A DNA stretch of 54,544 nt from a virus. Under the pieces are notes generated by a model. That model worked only from the letters and a program-made list of their open reading frames with translations, searched no databases and was not told where the DNA came from. The stretch spans positions 1 through 54,544 of the IMG/VR virus record IMGVR_UViG_3300045996_001382. One strand, given 5' to 3'. Below, one piece after another: positions 7,343 through 34,183 of the stretch (position 1 is its first letter; every line of letters starts with the position of its first letter). The position numbers and the translations under genes are program-made.

Positions 7343-8605
7343 TTAGTTAAGTGAAGGGTTAGCGTTAAGGGTCACAGAATGTTTCCCGTAAATTGATTCA
7401 AACTCTTTTTCATCCTCAGTAGACACTTTTGCACCAGCGGCGGCTGCCTGCTCAGTTACTACTGCTCCCGGGCTTCCGTCCGCAAGGTCAGCAAGTTTTT
7501 GGCTTGATGCCGCTTTTAGTAGGAATGCGCTTCTTTCCGATTCAGTAATAGGTAAACCACTGGCAATACCTTTGTTTACTGCTTCTTGGTCTACTCCGGC
7601 AAACACTTGCCAGGTCTTAACCCTTTCGCGTTCTGAATTTGCACCAGCATTAAATATCTCGGTGTAAGATTCAGGATGCTGACTTTTGATTTCGTCTGCC
7701 TTCATAGCTTTTTTATTTTTGTTATTTAAAGTTAATTTATTACTTGTTTTTTCATTCTCAACCTTGATGTAAGCAACCGCTTCTGCCAATCCACCTATTT
7801 CATCAACCAAAACACCCATGGTATCTTTGGCTTTATAAACAGATCCGTTTAGTTGCGCGTCGGTAACTCCTGGACGCTTACTTCTCATATCTTCGCGGAA
7901 GTCGTTAGCATGTGGGTTTAAGATTTGCTCTTTGGCTAGTTTATAATCATCATTATTAACCGCCTCTATAAACCATTTATTTTTTTCAGTGCTGGCGTCC
8001 GCATAAATAGTTACTTGTTTTTCACCGTGCACATTGATGCTTTTGTCCGGTTGGGCCTTAAATGAAATTAAAGTTCCAATTGAACCAACTTCAACCTTTT
8101 CGGTTTCCGCGAATATTCTACCGGTATGAGCTGCTATTCCATACATGGCCGAACCTGCCATACCACCACGAGTAACAACAGTAGCGGTGGGCTTGGTAGC
8201 ACTATCAAGTGCATGTTGCATGATTTCCATGCCCGCTGCTGAACCGCCACCGCTGTCTGCCATTATCACATGGCCGATAATGTTATCGTCTTTATCCAAC
8301 AGCATGAGCATGGCCGATATTTCATCCATGCCCCTGCTGCTCATGCCGCCGTTTTTAATGATAGGGCCGTTGATTGTAATTACAGAAACCATTGGTTCCT
8401 TTTTTACATCTGTCGCTGAATCTGCCGTAACAGTAGAATTTGAAAGAACATTGAATCGTGCTATGCTGTTAAGTTTTTCGGAAACGTTGTCGGATTGAAC
8501 GCCACTTCTGAAATCTTTTAGCATCGCTGATAGGGTTGTGAAGCTCATTTGGTCAACCATCCAAACACCACCACCGTAAATTTCTCGTGCTAAAGCATAA
8601 TTCAT
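7343..8605 (-). CDS. Head maturation protease, S49 (SppA/ClpP-like) family, with C-terminal scaffold-like region
   Basis: Motifs MADSGGGSAAG and GGMAGSAMYGIAAH...VEVGSIGT match the S49 peptidase signature. It sits in the lambda gpC position after the portal. Confidence 0.85.
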   Translation of the reverse strand: MNYALAREIYGGGVWMVDQMSFTTLSAMLKDFRSGVQSDNVSEKLNSIARFNVLSNSTVTADSATDVKKEPMVSVITINGPIIKNGGMSSRGMDEISAMLMLLDKDDNIIGHVIMADSGGGSAAGMEIMQHALDSATKPTATVVTRGGMAGSAMYGIAAHTGRIFAETEKVEVGSIGTLISFKAQPDKSINVHGEKQVTIYADASTEKNKWFIEAVNNDDYKLAKEQILNPHANDFREDMRSKRPGVTDAQLNGSVYKAKDTMGVLVDEIGGLAEAVAYIKVENEKTSNKLTLNNKNKKAMKADEIKSQHPESYTEIFNAGANSERERVKTWQVFAGVDQEAVNKGIASGLPITESERSAFLLKAASSQKLADLADGSPGAVVTEQAAAAGAKVSTEDEKEFESIYGKHSVTLNANPSLN

Positions 8606-8650
8606 GTTGATAAAAGTATGTCGAATTTTAACAACTTTAAAAAAAATCGT

Positions 8651-8690
8651 TTCACAGTATTGTGAATTTCAATGCGCATAGCTATATTTG
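8651..8690 (+). promoter_or_regulatory. Perfect palindrome TTCACAgtatTGTGAA overlapping a promoter-like ATTG-N20-TATATTTG
   Basis: Palindrome at 8651-8666; TAnnTTTG-type box TATATTTG at 8683-8690 on the plus strand. Confidence 0.3.
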
Positions 8691-8796
8691 AGCGTGTCAG
8701 AACAGGAACTTTTTAACGAAATCACATCAAAACCCAAGTGGTATGCTGGCTATACTACAGCGTCCAACGCGTCAAATATTAAAAAGAGATATAAAG

Positions 8797-8834
8797 AAAA
8801 AAGCCTGCAGCATACTACGCTGATCAGGCTTTTT
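8797..8834. terminator. Bidirectional rho-independent terminator-like hairpin between portal and protease genes
   Basis: A6-GCCTGCAGC-atactac-GCTGatCAGGC-T5: a 9-bp stem with a 2-nt bulge, flanked by an A-run and a T-run. Confidence 0.6.
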
Positions 8835-8881
8835 AATTATTTTGGGTTTAAGTTTACTGGATCCTGGGAGAAGTATAATTA

Positions 8882-10594
8882 TTAACTTTTCTTTTTGGGC
8901 GCCGTTGTGCCAGATGTTTGCTCGGGTTCTGGTTCGGGAACTATACCTAGCGAATCAACTGTCTTTTGTTCCTCAGCTAACTTTTTAACGTTAGACGCCC
9001 AATCACCAAAACCAGCCGCCTCAGTAGCTTGCTCATGACTGATCAGCGGAACATTTGCCGCGTCGGTACCCATCGCCAGGCGAATGGCATTCATTTCTTT
9101 AACAGGGTCAATATGTGGCATATTAATTCCGGTGAACTTGGCATTGCTGTAGGCTTCAACCACATCCATGTTTCCTTTTTCTTTGGCTTCAATATACCCG
9201 TTGGCCTCAACTTTATTTTTCAAGATGTGTACATACAGCCAAACGTTATAAACCGGTTGATAAAAATCTTCGACCAACCTTTTGCGATGGATGTCAACAA
9301 TATATCCCCAAGCATTTATTGCGGCCCGGGATGCGGAGTAGTTTGAATTGTATTGTTGCATGGCAACTTCTGGTGGTATGTCCGCGGCAGCACAAAACTG
9401 CACAAACATCGACCGGAAGAACGGGTCATAATTGATTTCGCTATTGCTGGCAACAGTTTTAAGTTCGGAATCAACTGGCAAGTTATGAACCTGGATGTTT
9501 TCGGTTATGGCAATTTGTTTAGCCGCCGCCTCCCCAAGTAGTCCACCATCCAATCCGTCAATTCCATTTCTTTGCCTGATATTTGTAACCAGGTGACTTT
9601 CACCTGTAGAGGTTTTTCCATGTTGCAAAACATGGACCACGCTTGCCCTCTGCTCCGCGGTAGCCACAGTAGCGTTGGTGTATCTTTCCAAAACTGTAAC
9701 TGGTTCAAGAATAGCAGAAATTTCAGGAATACCCCTAACGTGATCAATTCGGTGTTTGATTCCGTAGGACATCCAGGCCATTAAGCAACCTGTTTTTGGC
9801 TCATAAGCTTCAATTCGTTCATACGATGGAATGTTACCGATCAATCCTGTAGTATCTTTGCTATTGATTGCACTTTTTTTAACGTAAAAGGCGATATGTT
9901 TGCCAGATTTATCAATTTCAACCCCATCGATAATCACATTTCCACGATCGGTAGCTCCCTGCATGAAGGAGTTTTCCAATGTAGGCGTATTGATATGTTG
10001 GCCATCGATAATCTGGGTGGTGACATTATAGGTTTTTTTATCAACCCGCACAATGGTCAGCACGTCCCCACCAATAAATTTGCCAGAAAAGTTATTTTGG
10101 GCATTTTGATGGGCGCTTCCCATTCCTGAGAAGTCCGATTGTTTGGATTTCACCCACCTGTCCCAATATTCTTCAACATTCTGTGTAAAATCAGTAAAGT
10201 TTTCTTTTACTTTTTCAAGATTCAAAAGCCGTTCAAGTGGTTCAGATTGCAGCTTTAGTCCGTTACCAACCACCCATTTGAAGAATTTGCTGGTAATGAT
10301 CTTGATGATCGGGTTCGTCAGACTGGCTTCGTAGGCACGGAATCGTAAAGCCCGATAATCTGGAAACAGGTTCATTGGGTTTCCCAAGGCACCGGCATTC
10401 TTTTCGCCGTTGTAAACGCCGTTGATTATCGGAACAGGCCCGGTATTTGAATAAACAGAACCATTACCGGCAAATCCACCATACCAATTTTTTGTTTCCC
10501 TGGACGGCTCTTGCTCTACTGGTTCATCTGTCTTAGTAACAAACTTTTCTTGAAGTTCTGCCCTGAATTTATCGTTGATTGTTAACATCCGCAA
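8882..10594 (-). CDS. Portal protein, lambda (gpB) family
   Basis: 570-aa ORF between the gpW-like gene and the S49 protease, downstream of GpA-type TerL. This is lambda-type order A-W-B-C. Confidence 0.75.
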   Translation of the reverse strand: MRMLTINDKFRAELQEKFVTKTDEPVEQEPSRETKNWYGGFAGNGSVYSNTGPVPIINGVYNGEKNAGALGNPMNLFPDYRALRFRAYEASLTNPIIKIITSKFFKWVVGNGLKLQSEPLERLLNLEKVKENFTDFTQNVEEYWDRWVKSKQSDFSGMGSAHQNAQNNFSGKFIGGDVLTIVRVDKKTYNVTTQIIDGQHINTPTLENSFMQGATDRGNVIIDGVEIDKSGKHIAFYVKKSAINSKDTTGLIGNIPSYERIEAYEPKTGCLMAWMSYGIKHRIDHVRGIPEISAILEPVTVLERYTNATVATAEQRASVVHVLQHGKTSTGESHLVTNIRQRNGIDGLDGGLLGEAAAKQIAITENIQVHNLPVDSELKTVASNSEINYDPFFRSMFVQFCAAADIPPEVAMQQYNSNYSASRAAINAWGYIVDIHRKRLVEDFYQPVYNVWLYVHILKNKVEANGYIEAKEKGNMDVVEAYSNAKFTGINMPHIDPVKEMNAIRLAMGTDAANVPLISHEQATEAAGFGDWASNVKKLAEEQKTVDSLGIVPEPEPEQTSGTTAPKKKS

Positions 10595-10941
10595 TACCCT
10601 CCATAGCCATAGCCGCCGCGTAACGTAGATTTCGATCTCAGAACAGTTGTACGGCCATTAAGCCTGTTGATGTACATTTGTTGCATCTTTTCCAACGCGG
10701 TATTAGCGGCAATTATTGAATTTGTCGTGTCGTAGCTTACTTTGATTCGCACCTGTCCATCATCCAACTCATACATGGCCGTTCCGGCGGTACTACCAGA
10801 TACTGCGTTGCCAATCAAAGCAATGTTATTCATGATGATCACATCTATTGCGGCTATCTTTTCGCGAAGGCTGCACTTACTGGCTATGTACTCATTTGGG
10901 GTGTATTCAGTAAATCCACACATGGTAATTCGTTTTAACAA
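10582..10941 (-). CDS. gpW-like head-tail joining protein with Gly/Tyr/Cys-rich tail
   Basis: 119-aa ORF directly upstream of the portal gene and overlapping it by 13 nt. The C-terminus is RGGYGYGGYCGC. Confidence 0.45.
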   Translation of the reverse strand: MLKRITMCGFTEYTPNEYIASKCSLREKIAAIDVIIMNNIALIGNAVSGSTAGTAMYELDDGQVRIKVSYDTTNSIIAANTALEKMQQMYINRLNGRTTVLRSKSTLRGGYGYGGYCGC

Positions 10942-11136: not shown

Positions 11137-11286
11137 CATGCAAATTAATCGATATCGGATGTATTGTTACTAATTGGCTTTAAGTATCATTTCCTATAAG
11201 CTGCATTGGTAGAGAAATGACAAACCTACCTGCCCATTTAATCACGAAATAAAACCAATCATACATCCTGTCTTGGCTATGTGTTG

Positions 11287-11359
<73 letters not shown>

Positions 11360-23566: not shown

Positions 23567-25312
23567 TTATTTCTGATTAAATAGATTTTTGGTTATGTCA
23601 GTTATGATGGTGCTGATATCAGTCGTTGTGCCGGTAATAGCGTCTGCCACGCCGCGCTTCGCCTCAATCAGTTTATAGATATATTCATCAATGGTATCTT
23701 TTCCCAAAAAGTAGCTTATCTGGGCGCTATTCTTTTGGCCTATACGGTGAATCCTATCTTCGCATTGTTCCACATCTGCCGCATGCCATGGTAGTTCAAG
23801 GAACATTAACCTGGATGAAGCAGTAAGGGTAATGCCCACGCCTGCAGCTTTTATACTACAGATGATAACCTGCACACTCGGGTCATTCTGAAACGCATCA
23901 ACGTTACGCTGGCGGGCCTCCCTGTCATCATCACCGCGCACCGTCACTGCTTCTGGAAACTCTTTCATCAAGGCCTCGGCCATAAACTTCTGATGTATAA
24001 ACACAACTATCTTTTCTCCAGCATCAACTACCTCCTGTATGTGCTCAATAGCTTCTGGCAGTTTGCCTCGGGCACTTATAGATTTAAGCACACCAATTTT
24101 TACCATGATCTCAGCATTCAGCGATTTGTTCACCTGCTTATCACTATAACCTGATTCTCTTAGGAATTTACCCAAGTCGCCTTTTGCCATATTGTATTCC
24201 GCCCTGGTGGTGATATCGCAGGTGAATACCTCACGCATTTTATCTGGCAAGTCCTTAAGTACATCCTGTTTTTCCCTACGGAAGAAGCAAATATTATTCA
24301 GCTTGCCGTTAAGTTCATTAAGGTTTGCCGCACCAGTACCACCTTGGCAATACCTATCCATGAAATATTTGTAACCACCGAAGTTTTGTAGCTGGCCAAT
24401 CATGGATAGCTGGCTATTCAGGTCCCGAGGTTTATTCACCACAGGCGTACCCGTCAGGCCAATAATAATAGGTTTACCTGTAGTAATACCCTTGGCCACC
24501 TTTGCTTGTCTGGTAGACGGGTCCTTAAGTTTGTGCAACTCGTCAATGATTACCGATTTGAACATGCCAATTAGCGGGTTAAACTGAATATCCTTAAGTC
24601 CAGGCTTAGTACCTTTTTTATTGGTGGTACCGATCACGAAGTATGACCACAGCGATTCATAATTAATGATGATAAAATCAGCCATGCCCATTCGGTGATA
24701 TTGATGCCAAGTATGACGGTTCTTGTCATGCAAGATGATGGCGCGGCGGTTACTGAATTTTTCCTCAATCTCCCTGCGCCAGTTTTCCTTTAGTGTGGCC
24801 GGGCAGATAACTAAGCAGGGATAAGGATAGTTTTTATTATATTCTTCCTGGTCACCTTTTAATTTTGCCTGAGCAGCTAGGGATTCAAAACCCAATATTG
24901 TTCCTATAGACTGCATGGATTTACCCAGGCCCGGTTGATCAGCATTAATAAACTTGCGCAACTGCAGTCCCCGGGCGATACCCTTCTCCTGATAATGAAA
25001 CGGCTTAGTACCTGCTTTCCATGGTATAGGAATAGTAAGCTCAGGCAGTTCTTCAATTTTAAATATTTTTTCTTCACCTATGGCGTCAGGATGGGTAACC
25101 ACATATTTGGCTTTAAACTTCTCGATAGCAGGCTTATTGTAAAACTGCGTTTTAGTTCCGTCAGCGTTTTTCCGTTCAGCAATATGTGGTATGAACCAAC
25201 CTTTTTCTTTGCCTTGGAATCTGTGGCCGGGGATTTCTTTTAACTCCTTTACGATGTGTGGCCGAAAATCAAATTGTGCGTATATGCCGCGGGCGTCTTC
25301 TGTAATAACCAT
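23567..25312 (-). CDS. SNF2-family DEAD/H helicase-like ATPase
   Basis: Motifs ADQPGLGKS (I), DELH (II), LTGTP (III), GVGITLT (V) and QCEDRIHRIGQ (VI). Confidence 0.9.
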   Translation of the reverse strand: MVITEDARGIYAQFDFRPHIVKELKEIPGHRFQGKEKGWFIPHIAERKNADGTKTQFYNKPAIEKFKAKYVVTHPDAIGEEKIFKIEELPELTIPIPWKAGTKPFHYQEKGIARGLQLRKFINADQPGLGKSMQSIGTILGFESLAAQAKLKGDQEEYNKNYPYPCLVICPATLKENWRREIEEKFSNRRAIILHDKNRHTWHQYHRMGMADFIIINYESLWSYFVIGTTNKKGTKPGLKDIQFNPLIGMFKSVIIDELHKLKDPSTRQAKVAKGITTGKPIIIGLTGTPVVNKPRDLNSQLSMIGQLQNFGGYKYFMDRYCQGGTGAANLNELNGKLNNICFFRREKQDVLKDLPDKMREVFTCDITTRAEYNMAKGDLGKFLRESGYSDKQVNKSLNAEIMVKIGVLKSISARGKLPEAIEHIQEVVDAGEKIVVFIHQKFMAEALMKEFPEAVTVRGDDDREARQRNVDAFQNDPSVQVIICSIKAAGVGITLTASSRLMFLELPWHAADVEQCEDRIHRIGQKNSAQISYFLGKDTIDEYIYKLIEAKRGVADAITGTTTDISTIITDITKNLFNQK

Positions 25313-25317
25313 GTTTT

Positions 25318-25860
25318 TTATATTTGAATTGAGTTAATTATATTAAGGTTAGCAAATTCGCCGTGATATTTTACAGCCATCCTATTATATGCAAGCGCGG
25401 CTTCTTCTTCTAACGAGTATGACCCTCCACTTATCTGTCTTTTTTTATGAGGGTGTATTTTTACATTAATGCTTGCGCACCATTTACCATATCTATTATC
25501 CTTATGAACTCCTAAATAAATTGAACTTGAACCTTTAGCAGATGTTCTATTTTTACTATTGCCACTATAATCGGCAGCCCGAAGATTCTCTATTTTATCA
25601 TTTAAAGGGTTCCTATCTTCATGGTCAACAATAGTAGGCAACCATCCAAGATGCCAAAGAAAAATCAAACGGGACAGGGCGTAAGGCTTCCTATTTATTG
25701 TGGTGTACCATCTTTTATAATTGGGCCTATTTTTATCAACACGGACGCCACCAACCCTTTTACCCTTAGTTTTATTGGCACGATTATCTACTTTCCAATA
25801 TAAAGCTCCATCGCGATAGTCAAAAAGTGTTTTTATGTAATCTTGTGTAAGAGTTGTCAT
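25318..25860 (-). CDS. HNH homing-type endonuclease with AP2 DNA-binding domain
   Basis: VDHEDRNPLNDKIENLR (HNH) plus YLGVHKD..GKWCASI...SLEEEAALAYNRMAVKYHGEFANLN (AP2). Confidence 0.8.
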   Translation of the reverse strand: MTTLTQDYIKTLFDYRDGALYWKVDNRANKTKGKRVGGVRVDKNRPNYKRWYTTINRKPYALSRLIFLWHLGWLPTIVDHEDRNPLNDKIENLRAADYSGNSKNRTSAKGSSSIYLGVHKDNRYGKWCASINVKIHPHKKRQISGGSYSLEEEAALAYNRMAVKYHGEFANLNIINSIQI

Positions 25861-30787: not shown

Positions 30788-31759
30788 CTAATTATTAAAA
30801 AGGTCATTTTCATCATCTGTAGCATCAATCTGCACAGATTCTTTAACTTCTGGCGCTTCCTGTACCGCTTCGGTAAAACCATCTTTTACTTCCTCGGCCA
30901 CTTCCACATCTTCATGCTCGGTATCAATTACATCATCCATATAATCTGAATTGATAGTAACAGCAGCATCGTTATCCGGTACAAAACCGTTTGGTGATGA
31001 ATAGGCAAAGTCAACCCGTTTGTAACCCTTGAAGGAATGTAAAAGGGTTTTGGCTTTTAAGAAACCTTCGTCAATCTGTTTGTCCGGACCGGATGTGTAA
31101 AGAGCGTTCGCGCTGCCTTTATTCTTTTTGGCGCTGGCTGCTTGCCACCTGGCGATATCGGTCTGATCAAAAGTTTTAAACACTACAGTTCCATCGGGTT
31201 CAACCAGACGAACAAACGAACCGATAATTTTGGTAGATTTCTTTTCGGCTTCTTCCCACTTAACCTTTTTCTGGCCGGTATCGGTATCCATCCATACTTT
31301 ATACACATCGCCTTCATGCACGATATAGGGGTCGCCTACGGACTTTAATATGCCGCTGTTAATGCGGACTTCTTTTTCACCATAAGGCGTAGGTTGAGCC
31401 ACGCATTCTTTTATCCAATTATCCGGTTTGCCTTTACCGCCAATGTTGCGATTACCAGGTATAAGATAAATCTGAGCATCCTTACCATTGTCAAATGACA
31501 GGCGAAGTGCGCCAGCTTTCATGAAAGCAGTATAAATACTCATTGGTGTACATGAACTAAGCTCAGGCGATTGGCTAACTATCTTAGAGAAGTTATCTTT
31601 TTCGCGCTCATAGTAGCGATTGGCTTCCTGCTCAGGCATTTTATACATGAGCATCATTTTATTGATCACCTGGTTCTTCACGGCCGGGTCATGAGCGATA
31701 GCCACCGGTCGAAGTCCGTCAATGTGGCTTTTGGTTACTTGCATTGGTTTTTTTTCCAT
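30788..31759 (-). CDS. RecT-like single-strand annealing recombinase
   Basis: ORF-track frame 30788..31822. The ATG at 31759 (MEKKPMQV...) is preferred. The core SCTPMSIYTAFMKAGALRLSFDNGKDAQIYLIPG resembles the RecT family. Confidence 0.55.
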   Translation of the reverse strand: MEKKPMQVTKSHIDGLRPVAIAHDPAVKNQVINKMMLMYKMPEQEANRYYEREKDNFSKIVSQSPELSSCTPMSIYTAFMKAGALRLSFDNGKDAQIYLIPGNRNIGGKGKPDNWIKECVAQPTPYGEKEVRINSGILKSVGDPYIVHEGDVYKVWMDTDTGQKKVKWEEAEKKSTKIIGSFVRLVEPDGTVVFKTFDQTDIARWQAASAKKNKGSANALYTSGPDKQIDEGFLKAKTLLHSFKGYKRVDFAYSSPNGFVPDNDAAVTINSDYMDDVIDTEHEDVEVAEEVKDGFTEAVQEAPEVKESVQIDATDDENDLFNN

Positions 31760-31778
31760 GTTATTATATAATAAATTG

Positions 31779-32015
31779 TTAAGCAATTGGGTTACCATCG
31801 TAGTCCAATCCAAATAAACCATTGGTGGCCAATCTGGTGTCTACAATATCTCTAAGGTCAACCTCACCTTTTTTCTTTTCAACAACTTTAAAAAGTTGCA
31901 ATATTAGTTCGGTTGTAACAGAATCGGCTTTAATTCCAGCGCCGTTTAACACCATTTTATACCATCCAGCAGTGTCAATTTTTTCTACTTTCATTTCTTT
32001 TTTTCCTCCGTCCAA
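31779..32015 (-). CDS. Hypothetical protein
   Basis: 78-aa ORF. Confidence 0.5.
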   Translation of the reverse strand: MDGGKKEMKVEKIDTAGWYKMVLNGAGIKADSVTTELILQLFKVVEKKKGEVDLRDIVDTRLATNGLFGLDYDGNPIA

Positions 32016-32759: not shown

Positions 32760-32892
32760 ATTTTCAGAAGTTTTAATTTTTAATACTTTTTATATTCTGG
32801 GAGTATCGAAACCGCCAGCATTTCAAACGATACACCGCTTTTACAACGTTACTATTAAACGGCTGAGGCTTTACTCCCAGAATATATTAATG

Positions 32893-33206
32893 TGGAGGTG
32901 GAGGGGGTCGAACCCTCGTCCAGTTGTGTCAGTTAATTAATAATTTTGTTACAAGCTTCTATTCGCACTATTGGGGCTTCCGGTTACGGTAGCTGTTCCA
33001 CCAATCCATTTTACAGTTGGATAACTGCCAATGTATTAAGCTGCTAATTTAGCAGAAACATTGCGATTGAACATAGATACTACTTTAGCACCTAAAGTTC
33101 CAACTAAAGAGTTGTCGTTTGCTGTTTGATACACATTTACAAGTATAGTATCATCCTTGGCTTGTTATTAATCACTTTAATCACCCTGTCAATTCCATGC
33201 ACCCCC
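32893..33206 (-). ncRNA. ssrA: tmRNA (transfer-messenger RNA), 314 nt, with 28-codon tag ORF at 33122..33036
   Basis: The 5' GGGGGUG pairs with the 3' CACCUCC, including G3:U70, followed by discriminator A. T arm is GAGGG-UUCGACC-CCCUC. The 5' GGGGGTGCATGGAATTGACAGGG resembles the canonical tmRNA 5' end. The internal frame GCA AAC GAC ... TTA GCA GCT TAA TA encodes ANDNSLVGTLGAKVVSMFNRNVSAKLAA. Confidence 0.85.
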
Positions 33207-33226
33207 AAGTGTTTTTTAATTTTTAA

Positions 33227-33255
33227 AAAGTGGCCAACCTCGCGCCGGCCACTTT
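33227..33255 (-). other. GC-rich hairpin plus U-run 20 nt upstream of the tmRNA 5' end
   Basis: The minus strand reads AAAGTGGCC-ggcgcgaggtt-GGCCACTTT followed by TTAAAAATT. Confidence 0.5.
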
Positions 33256-33667: not shown

Positions 33668-34183
33668 ATGAAAAATACACTAGAGAATAAAGCAAGGTTT
33701 TTTGCACAGTATTGGGGCATTGGATTGCTATGGCATACACAAATGGAAAATCAGTATGCTGATATAGCCGACTTGATCAAAAGACGGAATGAAGTTAATG
33801 AGGTGTTTCATGGCAATCCCGACCCCGAATTGACCTTTTGGCAACTACCATTACGCCCCCTATCATCAATAACAGATGAGGAAGCTATCGATTGCGCTTT
33901 TATAGCCGTAAACACTAGCGGATATCTATGTAAAAGCAGAAGTCAATATTTAAAAATTGAGCGAATAGAGCAGGTTATTAAAGTACACATTGAGGGCGTT
34001 ATTGTAGAAATATTAACAGGTATAGGCTTAATAGCGGTACTAAGAAATGATAATTCGTTTGTTGGATACTTACCTACCGCATTCGAGCCATATCAGCACT
34101 TACAGTCAATTGCAATAGCCCTGCCATACCACAATCTAAGCGTAGAACAACTAATAGAATACGGCTGGGTAAAGCTTAACTAA
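33668..34183 (+). CDS. Hypothetical protein
   Basis: 171-aa ORF. Confidence 0.6.
   Translation: MKNTLENKARFFAQYWGIGLLWHTQMENQYADIADLIKRRNEVNEVFHGNPDPELTFWQLPLRPLSSITDEEAIDCAFIAVNTSGYLCKSRSQYLKIERIEQVIKVHIEGVIVEILTGIGLIAVLRNDNSFVGYLPTAFEPYQHLQSIAIALPYHNLSVEQLIEYGWVKLN

Follow-up and report, generated by a model that had tools for sequence, protein, structure and literature searches.

A one-piece tmRNA gene with a long predicted tag frame, carried as optional cargo by a myovirus of Bacteroidota-type affinity

Introduction

A census of 2014 listed genes for transfer-messenger RNA (tmRNA) in eight mycobacteriophages, Bacillus phage G and DS6A (PMC4131195), and a survey of 2022 found them in 402 of 18,146 phage genomes (2.3%), including genomes of 34–60 kb and several Bacteroidota phages, namely Cellulophaga phi14:2, phi38:1 and phi4:1 and Salinibacter SRUTV-1 (PMC9004378, Table S1). 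Phage tmRNAs have been catalogued in this way, and functionally they are almost unstudied. Here we describe a tmRNA gene on the minus strand (32893-33206) of a viral sequence of 54,544 nucleotides (nt), IMG/VR record IMGVR_UViG_3300045996_001382. This whole stretch is called the window, and RNA position i of the tmRNA corresponds to window coordinate 33207 - i. An initial annotation of the window had pointed out the gene and had considered tmRNA genes to be known from only a few large phages, a view that is outdated in the light of the survey, which has them in hundreds of genomes, some below 60 kb (PMC9004378).

The standard one-piece tmRNA, as found in E. coli and in Bacteroidota hosts, shares with the window gene the acceptor stem with its G3·U pair, the T arm, the GGAAUUGAC element, the helix P2 and the pseudoknot PK1, as well as a spacer of about 11 nt, an A at position -4, a resume codon beginning with G, an alanine at the tag end and the stop codon UAA. 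Host tmRNAs of Lewinellaceae (L011, L013) and Cytophagales (L014, L015) have an identical 22-nt 5' motif (two positions were free in the search pattern), and the 3' CACCUCCA of host-type tmRNAs is identical to that of the window. On the other hand, these host tmRNAs have 375–399 nt, usually with four pseudoknots, and tags of 9–10 residues (GEDYSYAMAA, GEGNYAMAA), whereas the window RNA has 314 nt, two supported pseudoknots and a tag of 26 residues; it also departs from them in its GAC (Asp) resume codon, in two hairpins within the tag template and in its location in a phage. The tRNA-like domain of the window RNA corresponds to that of Bacteroidota hosts.

One-piece tmRNAs are likewise carried by other Bacteroidota (Flavobacteriia) phages, namely the 73-kb podoviruses Calle_1–3, phi38:1 and phi40:1 of Cellulophaga. 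The tmRNA of Calle_1 is annotated with 360 nt, and its 22-residue tag as given by ARAGORN, AQIEANMEAVNAILNLEVAVGV, ends in GV and is unrelated to that of the window. The two genes have in common a 3'-domain motif consisting of a hairpin plus UUGGUGGA and a nearly identical T arm, but blastn similarity is confined to the T arm, Calle_1 is detected by ARAGORN, and the phages belong to different families. The Calle tmRNA gene adjoins 20 tRNA genes, and the literature merely counts it (PMC8776804). Full-length one-piece tmRNAs also occur in lytic mycobacteriophages (Bxz1, other cluster C phages and Wildcat) and in Bacillus phage G, that of Wildcat being very highly expressed during infection (PMC4131195; PMC7474061). 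These phages differ from the window in their hosts (Actinobacteria or Firmicutes), in genome sizes of mostly 78–500 kb and in having many tRNA genes, and their tmRNAs show no sequence relationship to it. In the permuted tmRNAs of Melnitz (Methylophilales), Mosig (Pelagibacter), MA9V-3 (Chryseobacterium), the crAss-like phages cr10_1 and cr50_1, and the loci L001 and L002, several of them from Bacteroidota phages, the T arm and acceptor are almost identical to those of the window and the tags (14–17 residues) exceed the host length, but the gene order is circularly permuted and the mature RNA accordingly in two pieces, whereas the window gene is unpermuted.

The tag of Mollicutes (Mesoplasma florum) is, like that of the window, much longer than the E. 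coli tag, with a sequence unrelated to the window's, and some Mollicutes tags likewise begin with Asp. In the absence of ClpXP, the Mollicutes tag, with its ending NYAFA, is recognized by Lon (PMC9382460), whereas the window tag ends in KLAA, an ending of the ClpX type. DS6A resembles the window in having a phage-borne tmRNA derivative that would depend on host SmpB, but it has no tag template (PMC4131195), whereas in the window gene PK1, the resume context and the frame of the tag are all present. The window tmRNA adds a member to the known phage tmRNAs, arguably a distinct compact sub-lineage.

Identity of the Gene

The Rfam tmRNA model RF00023 matches 32890-33206 of the window on the minus strand with 78.1 bits, against a gathering score of 47 (E = 1.1e-28), and the match spans the whole model (positions 1–374). 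The full-length one-piece tmRNA that the initial annotation had read on this strand is thereby corroborated by the covariance model, the check it had itself put forward. The mature RNA would comprise 314 nt (32893-33206), and the block conserved in the homologues L004, L006 and L008 runs from G1 to the RNA 3' end.

The acceptor stem P1 (RNA 1–7 with 307–313) is formed by GGGGGUG (33200-33206) and CACCUCC (32894-32900), the latter followed by the discriminator A (RNA 314, 32893), which completes the 3' strand at 32893-32900. The next letters are CAT, and CCA is not encoded. The G3·U pair, the alanine identity element within this stem, is unchanged in eight of eight relatives, and L171 and L201 have compensated changes elsewhere in the stem. 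The T arm GAGGG-UUCGACC-CCCUC (RNA 290–306, 32901-32917; 290–294 pair with 302–306) is aligned with maximum Rfam posterior probabilities, as is the D-loop-like element, UGGAAUUGAC; the T stem occurs in six differing versions among the relatives, all of them paired. The pairing with its G3·U wobble, the discriminator, the missing CCA and the T arm had all been described in the initial annotation, and each was found in the sequence as described. The model of the permuted, two-piece form (RF04321) has no match in the window at its gathering score, and the order of the gene is the standard one. ARAGORN at relaxed thresholds made 'permuted' calls in the window, which were dismissed as spurious. Taken together, the window gene is a genuine tmRNA and probably functional.

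Secondary Structure and Conservation

Homologues were collected by pattern scans of IMG/VR and JGI metagenomes and filtered with a tmRNA family profile. A scan of IMG/VR with a tag-hairpin motif gave mostly chance matches among those listed, and after the nhmmer filter nothing new was left among them; L019 matched the family profile in this filtering. A scan of IMG/VR with the gapped motif UGGUGGA...AAGCUUGUAA, of which most listed matches before nhmmer filtering were again due to chance, added at least five loci (L171, L223, L193, L207 and L201). Ten phage-borne relatives from viromes and metagenomes were used, and further members certainly exist. The close relatives are L004, L006 (L025 is the same contig), L008 and L171, and the more distant ones are L223, L193 and L019, plus L018, L201, L027 and L022/L023/L026. 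Among GenBank phages, blastn detected no relative of the tmRNA of the window, L223 or L201 beyond the T arm. Helices were verified by explicit strand pairs; MAFFT misplaced the central regions of L018 and L171.

The homologues in L004, L006, L008 and L171 have 309–314 nt with a mean column identity of 85–87%. From the four closest copies, RNAalifold independently finds P1, the long P2, stem 2 of PK1, the hairpin of the second pseudoknot (PK2) and the T arm. When the manually drawn structure including the pseudoknots is applied to the four close homologues, 96.8% of the cells are standard pairs, as against 32–46% in a control in which the 3' partners were slid by 1–3 columns, a signal far above chance. 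Changes on both sides occur in five pairs, located in P2a, P2d, PK1 stem 1, the second tag hairpin and the T arm. Throughout nine relatives, the strands of P1, P2b, P2d and the T arm, as well as the two stems of each pseudoknot (PK1 and PK2), remain complementary (7–9 sequences per helix), and most of these eight main helices occur in several sequence versions. Because the helices hold via compensatory changes while G3·U stays constant, the comparison marks the window tmRNA as a real RNA gene under purifying selection.

The 5' strand of P2 (RNA 19–47, 33160-33188), as outlined by RNAalifold, consists of P2a (CAG and GUG), P2b (UGAUUAAUAA) and P2d (CAAGC), and the 3' strand (RNA 251–286, 32921-32956) of GCUUG, UUAUUAAUUA, CAC and CUG. 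In P2a, RNA 19–21 and 23–25 pair with 284–286 and 279–281, in P2b 33–42 with 264–273, and in P2d 43–47 with 251–255. Compensatory pairs are found in P2a and P2d, and P2b has wholly different sequences in L018, L019 and L201 that are nevertheless complementary. PK1 follows at RNA 48–80 (33127-33159), with stem 1 CAAG/CUUG (48–51 with 64–67) and stem 2 UGAUAC/GUAUCA (54–59 with 75–80). One pair of stem 1 is C-G, A-U or G-C within the close family, and in nine relatives stem 1 occurs in six versions and stem 2 in four, all of them complementary.

PK2, CAGUU-AUCC-AACUG-UAAAAU-GGAU (RNA 180–203, 33004-33027; 180–184 pair with 189–193 and 185–188 with 200–203), is identical in four copies, and L171 retains both of its stems through double changes. 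L223 has an H-type pseudoknot at the same site, built from unrelated sequence. A PK2 guessed for L019 failed the pairing check and was discarded. At the site of PK3 and PK4, the window RNA can form an imperfect 3'-domain hairpin (RNA 205–234, 32973-33002), for which support is moderate, 69–92% of the cells being paired; it opens with the (U)GGUGGA motif, which is common to L018, L019, L223, L201 and Cellulophaga phage Calle_1. With two supported pseudoknots, the RNA is accordingly short, 314 nt against 375–399 nt in the retrieved Bacteroidota hosts, as had been anticipated when reduced pseudoknots were suspected from its length.

Resume Codon and Tag Frame

From PK1, an A-rich single-stranded spacer of about 11 nt, AAACAGCAAAC (33117-33126), leads to the putative resume codon, with an A at -4 (33120). 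The initial annotation had let translation resume at GCA (33122), had counted 28 codons up to an end in AKLAA and had likened the codons GCA AAC GAC to the start of the E. coli tag. The frame is in fact open from 33122 to UAA at 33038-33036, but GCA gives way to ACA, ATA and ATA in L004, L006 and L008, respectively, and the likeness to the E. coli tag is not kept in relatives. Owing to an upstream difference in length of one base, the whole L008 sequence preceding GAC is out of register. The codon at 33116, on the other hand, is GAC or GGC in all close relatives, 11–12 nt past PK1 and with A at -4. All ten relatives have an A-rich spacer of 10–12 nt, an A at -4 and a resume codon beginning with G (GAC, GGC, GGU or GCA), and ARAGORN independently selects the homologous GGC as the resume codon in L018. 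This geometry agrees with that of E. coli, where the spacer has 11 nt and the frame is set four nucleotides downstream of A86 (PMC2481249). The resume codon is therefore very probably GAC at 33116, two codons downstream of GCA in the same frame.

The predicted tag frame (RNA 91–168, 33039-33116) thus has 26 codons, DNSLVGTLGAKVVSMFNRNVSAKLAA, giving 27 added residues when the alanine carried by the tmRNA is counted, and is closed by UAA (RNA 169–171, 33036-33038) within the motif GCUUAAUA, which is kept in the close family. Of the earlier description, the unusual length and the ending hold, while the start and the count of 28 do not. Most close relatives have 23 codons, the window bearing a 9-nt in-frame insertion, and other members of the clade have 21, 23, 25 and 34 codons. 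The commonest tag length overall is 10 (PMC11915505), and the tag of this clade is consistently two to three times the bacterial norm. The window frame ends in ...SAKLAA-UAA and those of relatives in AVA, VAA, LAA, AAA or QAA; across sub-lineages, the tag sequences are unrelated except for this ending, a basic residue followed by small hydrophobic residues.

Two hairpins lie within the frame. Hairpin 1, CAACU-CUUU-AGUUG (RNA 93–106, 33101-33114), is found by RNAalifold, and L171 has CGAU-AUA-AUCG in its place at the same site, which changes the residues DNSLVG to GDIIVK. Hairpin 2 (RNA 107–138, 33069-33100) has an outer stem GAAC/GUUC and an inner stem AGGUGCUA/UAGUAUCU. One of its pairs is U-A in most copies and A-U in L004, the adjoining pair being G·U, A-U or G-C, and the seemingly synonymous valine codons GUA, GUU and GUG belong to these paired changes. 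The variable residues of the tag fall in the hairpin loops and the conserved ones (AKVVSMF) in the stems, from which we infer that over the first two-thirds of the tag template the constraint acts mainly on the RNA, and that selection on the peptide is confined to the C-terminal degron. Much of the apparent peptide conservation in the clade would then reflect RNA structure, and tag alignments should not be taken as a sign of peptide selection.

The same distribution of variable and conserved residues would be expected if rescue were real and the long 'tag' served mainly as a structural spacer that compensates for lost pseudoknots, the peptide being irrelevant but for its last residues, or translation resuming later. 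The retention of hairpin 1 in L171 despite six altered residues at the start of the tag fits such a spacer, as do a length that persists (21–26 codons) among unrelated tag sequences and the finding that both the pseudoknots and the tag template of E. coli can be replaced (PMC2481249); ARAGORN at a low threshold, moreover, proposes a shorter tag, AKVVSMF.... However, the frame is open from the canonical resume position in ten of ten relatives and the length difference among them is in frame, the A at -4 together with the 11-nt spacer favours the upstream start, and the tag shows no obvious shortening with RNA length, L223 having 23 codons in 358 nt as extracted. We regard the spacer as possible, though on balance unlikely.

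Phage Genome and Host

The first 127 bases of the window recur exactly at its end, and this overlap identifies the window as a circular assembly of about 54.4 kb. Genes for a tail sheath, major head protein, head decoration protein, maturation protease, portal and large terminase are found at 2.6-13.7 kb (PHROGs, Pfam), and baseplate and tail-spike genes at 40.9-54.5 kb, in a module that runs on across the window ends. Between them are genes for an SNF2-type helicase, an HNH endonuclease, a methyltransferase, a PD-(D/E)XK exonuclease, RecT and an amidase endolysin. No integrase or recombinase of the integration type was found in any open reading frame (ORF) scanned, and Pfam and tblastn found no SmpB in the window. 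By its gene content, the phage appears to be a contractile-tailed myovirus of virulent type with a circular genome of 54.4 kb. The tmRNA gene is inside this complete genome, with structural and replication genes on both sides, in agreement with the initial annotation, which had taken it to be phage-borne.

The large terminase (TerL) shares 48% identity with its counterpart in the phiSM group of 54-kb Cellulophaga myoviruses and 38–40% with that of Flavobacterium myoviruses. The relatives of RecT include prophage copies in Sphingobacterium and Pedobacter, and the tmRNA 5' motif is found in tmRNAs of Lewinellaceae and Cytophagales. These three likenesses point to a host within the Bacteroidota, the class being left wide. 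Exact-sequence look-ups of the TerL and RecT products of the window found none on record; a search of IMG/VR with the RecT locus gave no relatives, whereas a search with the RecT protein did find them.

That the gene is a host chromosomal ssrA brought into the contig by misassembly, or a prophage flank, is a general possibility in metagenome assemblies, and nothing else speaks for it. The contig closes on itself by the 127-nt overlap with phage genes on both sides of the tmRNA, the G+C content of the gene (0.40) matches that of the genome, the homology to the backbone of the related phage L268 restarts exactly at the 3' end of the gene, and at least five further copies are present in other viral contigs. 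In addition, when the 5' motif was searched for in 185,579 species-representative genomes, all that came up were ordinary host tmRNAs, none of them of the window family. A temperate phage might also carry ssrA, or part of it, in attP and so restore the host tmRNA gene upon integration, because integration into tmRNA genes is common, and it has been suggested that phage copies offset the disruption of the host gene (PMC11590407; PMC9004378). Against this stand the lack of an integrase or recombinase in the ORFs scanned, the full length of the gene, which is not a 3' fragment, its distance from the host-type tmRNAs of Bacteroidota (375–399 nt, tags of 9–10 residues), and the presence of tRNA genes or nothing at the same place in related phages. 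Both origins were rejected on this evidence, integration-linked carriage being very improbable and a host chimera scarcely credible.

The only tRNA gene of the phage, and the only ARAGORN call in the window apart from the spurious ones at relaxed thresholds, is one with a CAT anticodon (11286-11359, minus strand), for Met, or for Ile after lysidine modification, which lies between the terminase and portal region. At 23567-25860, the window has a helicase of 581 residues and then a separate HNH endonuclease gene of 180 residues; the SNF2 helicases of the related phages L268, L271, L272 and L273 have about 930 residues with LAGLIDADG or Hom_end matches, which suggests an intein or homing endonuclease insertion in the latter.

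The Cargo Slot

The tmRNA gene occupies a 909-nt gap between divergent operons, the RecT operon running leftwards from 32759 and a plus-strand ORF starting at 33668. The gene of the RecT-family recombinase (30788-31822, minus strand; Pfam RecT) serves as an anchor of synteny: six sister phages, L268–L273, have the same neighbouring genes, with RecT proteins 54–76% identical and a module of RecT, a 410-residue protein, DUF3799 and the SNF2-helicase that has 64–79% nucleotide identity with the window. None of the six has a tmRNA by Rfam, family profile or ARAGORN, nor does phiSM, the nearest isolate. Upstream, the slot is bounded by a conserved TTTACTTTG...TTGTGATAAGGTT region with a small hairpin after it, and downstream by the conserved leader of the RecT operon. 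Between the two borders, L272 and L269 have nothing, L270 has a tRNA-Met, L271 and L273 have an unusual tRNA with other material, L268 has tRNA-like sequences, and the window has the tmRNA.

Conversely, the flanks of the tmRNA in L004, L006 and L008 have essentially nothing in common with those of the window by tblastx except a methyltransferase in L006. The neighbours of the homologous tmRNAs, where they could be examined, are all phage genes: the gene lies in a tail module in L004, in a DnaB replication module in L006, beside a tail fibre gene in L008, between portal and terminase in L027 and in a T4-like replication module in L021. Because six syntenic sisters and phiSM lack the tmRNA while unrelated phages carry homologues, it is accessory cargo, variably present among related phages. 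A slot that holds a tmRNA, tRNA genes or nothing is a clean natural case of the exchange of small-RNA cargo among phages.

Directly upstream of the tmRNA, the phage backbone contains a small GC-rich hairpin, GUGGCC-GGCGCGAGGUU-GGCCAC followed by UUUUU (33230-33252, minus strand), which is also present in L268 (about 8558-8584), L271 (about 8004-8032) and L272; the loop GCGAGGT and the T-run are kept and the stems covary. It resembles a terminator or attenuator at the start of an early operon. Directly downstream lies a 96-nt imperfect hairpin (32791-32886, minus strand; -39.6 kcal/mol, z = -6.75), which recurs in L268 at 83% identity, two pairs of its outer stem being compensatory there, and has an analogue with the same ends (ATATATTC...GAATAT) in L270. 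Since L268 keeps the hairpin while lacking a tmRNA, this element is part of the backbone or slot, not of the tmRNA; the homology between the window and L268 restarts exactly at the tmRNA 3' end. The hairpin has no match in Rfam and could serve the RecT operon as a leader, a terminator or a small RNA.

The tmRNA together with the large hairpin is flanked, at 33214-33226 and 32771-32783, by an AT-rich direct repeat of 13 nt (minus strand, TTAAAAATTAAAA). It may be a scar of insertion or recombination, a weak indication given its low complexity, and a direct-repeat finder reported nothing around the slot. The tRNA in the slot of L271 (8045-8121) and L273 (7919-7995) scores 37.9 bits with the Rfam tRNA model and is given a 4-base anticodon 'ttca' by ARAGORN; it could be cargo resembling an opal or frameshift suppressor. 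In L268, at about 8600-8920, there are two sequences resembling tRNAs, whose T arms, GGGTTCGAGTCCC and GGGTTCGAATCCC, are good. They are called neither by Rfam nor by ARAGORN at default settings, and ARAGORN reports them only when its threshold is lowered or introns are allowed; they may be tRNA genes that are degenerate or contain an intron.

Proposed Role in Ribosome Rescue

The evidence is best explained by a genuine phage-encoded one-piece tmRNA under selection that is carried as optional cargo in a small-RNA slot and would add to ribosome rescue, a reading to which we assign a probability of roughly 0.8. Transcription of the RNA would take place early, from the divergent control region that precedes the RecT operon, host enzymes would trim the transcript, and since CCA is not encoded, the host CCA-adding enzyme would be needed to finish its 3' end. 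Host alanyl-tRNA synthetase would charge it with alanine via G3·U, and SmpB, which must come from the host because the phage encodes none, would bring it together with EF-Tu to ribosomes stalled on broken or stop-less mRNAs. Translation would restart at GAC (33116), add A-DNSLVGTLGAKVVSMFNRNVSAKLAA and end at UAA, so that the ribosome is freed and the product bears a C-terminal degron of the ...LAA type for host proteases. The phage would presumably gain additional capacity for ribosome rescue during infection, the role usually suggested for phage tmRNAs (PMC9004378; PMC7162821), and such a benefit is plausible because the Wildcat tmRNA is the most abundant lytic transcript (PMC7474061). Roles in anti-defence or in re-routing tagged products away from or towards host proteolysis, both raised in the initial annotation, are speculation.

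Several observations weigh against this reading. ARAGORN, which the initial annotation had named as a further check, does not call the tmRNA at default or relaxed thresholds. As to structure, PK1 and PK2 are the only pseudoknots with support, the usual number being four (PMC11915505), and according to RNAalifold the tmRNA family of the window shows no more than a weak form of the canonical helix 5 around the stop codon. Taken alone, the open frame is statistically unremarkable, as 26 or more open codons arise in 13% of shuffles, and RNA structure can by itself explain the conservation of the tag, which hence does not prove that the whole of it is translated. Finally, no clear promoter was found directly upstream of the tmRNA and no Bacteroidota TAnnTTTG motif within 290 nt upstream, and the terminator-like hairpin stands about 20 nt before the 5' end.

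The failure of ARAGORN is a limitation of the tool, because it also misses genuine tmRNAs of Lewinellaceae hosts. The reduced set of PK2–PK4 is not disqualifying, because the pseudoknots of E. coli tmRNA can be replaced (PMC2481249). As the open frame alone is unremarkable, the argument for the tag rests on its persistence across divergent relatives. A promoter motif, TATATTTG, is present just upstream of the tmRNAs of L006, L008 and L019; a scan for sigma-70 promoters and terminators told little, with 10 sites where 6.3 were expected and not a single terminator. ARAGORN underlies surveys of phage tmRNAs (PMC9004378, PMC7162821) and misses the window family, which covariance models find, so that the frequencies of phage tmRNAs based on it are underestimates.

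A phage without an SmpB of its own and with a reduced set of pseudoknots might also use such an RNA as a decoy that inhibits the tmRNA of the host. DS6A offers a precedent, as its sequence is barely more than a tRNA-like domain and a molecule of this sort is a strong inhibitor of tmRNA (PMC4131195; PMC11915505). PK1, the resume context, an intact frame, the canonical C-terminus and the stop codon would, however, be needless for a pure decoy, and all of them are kept in divergent relatives, which makes this explanation improbable.

Beyond a tmRNA that boosts rescue, a bolder proposal is that the clade is a phage-only lineage of compact one-piece tmRNAs of Bacteroidota phages, with support for no more than two pseudoknots, with structure in the mRNA-like domain and with tags of 21–34 residues, in which the long tag is an adaptation and not drift and the cassette competes with tRNA genes for the slot. 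We put this forward tentatively, as a proposal that deserves rather low credence. If it were true, the long tag might send rescued proteins to another protease or adaptor or delay their fate, or else the long template might physically make up for the missing ring of pseudoknots, and the tmRNA would travel between unrelated phages as a small-RNA cassette. The present findings do not overturn current understanding; they raise the question of why this clade encodes long tags, and given a host, the system could show whether phages boost or redirect trans-translation.

Related Loci in Other Phages

Four viral sequences of 46–107 kb in IMG/VR (L005, L007, L009 and L010) have the same 5' motif, a PK1-like region and a terminator, with no 3' half nearby; the tags there read AEPSFALAA and, in L007, AGRNVAMAA, and both Rfam at its gathering score and ARAGORN miss these loci. 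Each of them resembles the coding part of a tmRNA in two pieces. On the minus strand of L003 (3670-3702), a lone tmRNA 3' fragment, tggacgagggttcgaccccctccacctccacca, with CCA encoded, lies in a large phage tRNA array, and no tmRNA is detectable around it.

A 171-kb IMG/VR contig, L207, contains at about 10530-10711 a tmRNA-like 5' acceptor strand, a UGGUGGA domain, a T arm and a 3' acceptor strand, apparently with neither PK1 nor a tag; it may be a mini-tmRNA of the DS6A type. L019 (metagenome contig Ga0208644_1129098, 33-586, minus strand) is a long-tag tmRNA with the tag GEKSTFSFEDAMSFVGADLAVAA and with TATATTTG upstream, whose T loop is broken after GGGUU by a group I intron (RF00028, 84 bits), the contig stopping before the 3' exon. 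By our own reading, the intron would be inserted at loop position 3, a subsite reported only from the class Bacteroidia (PMC11915505).

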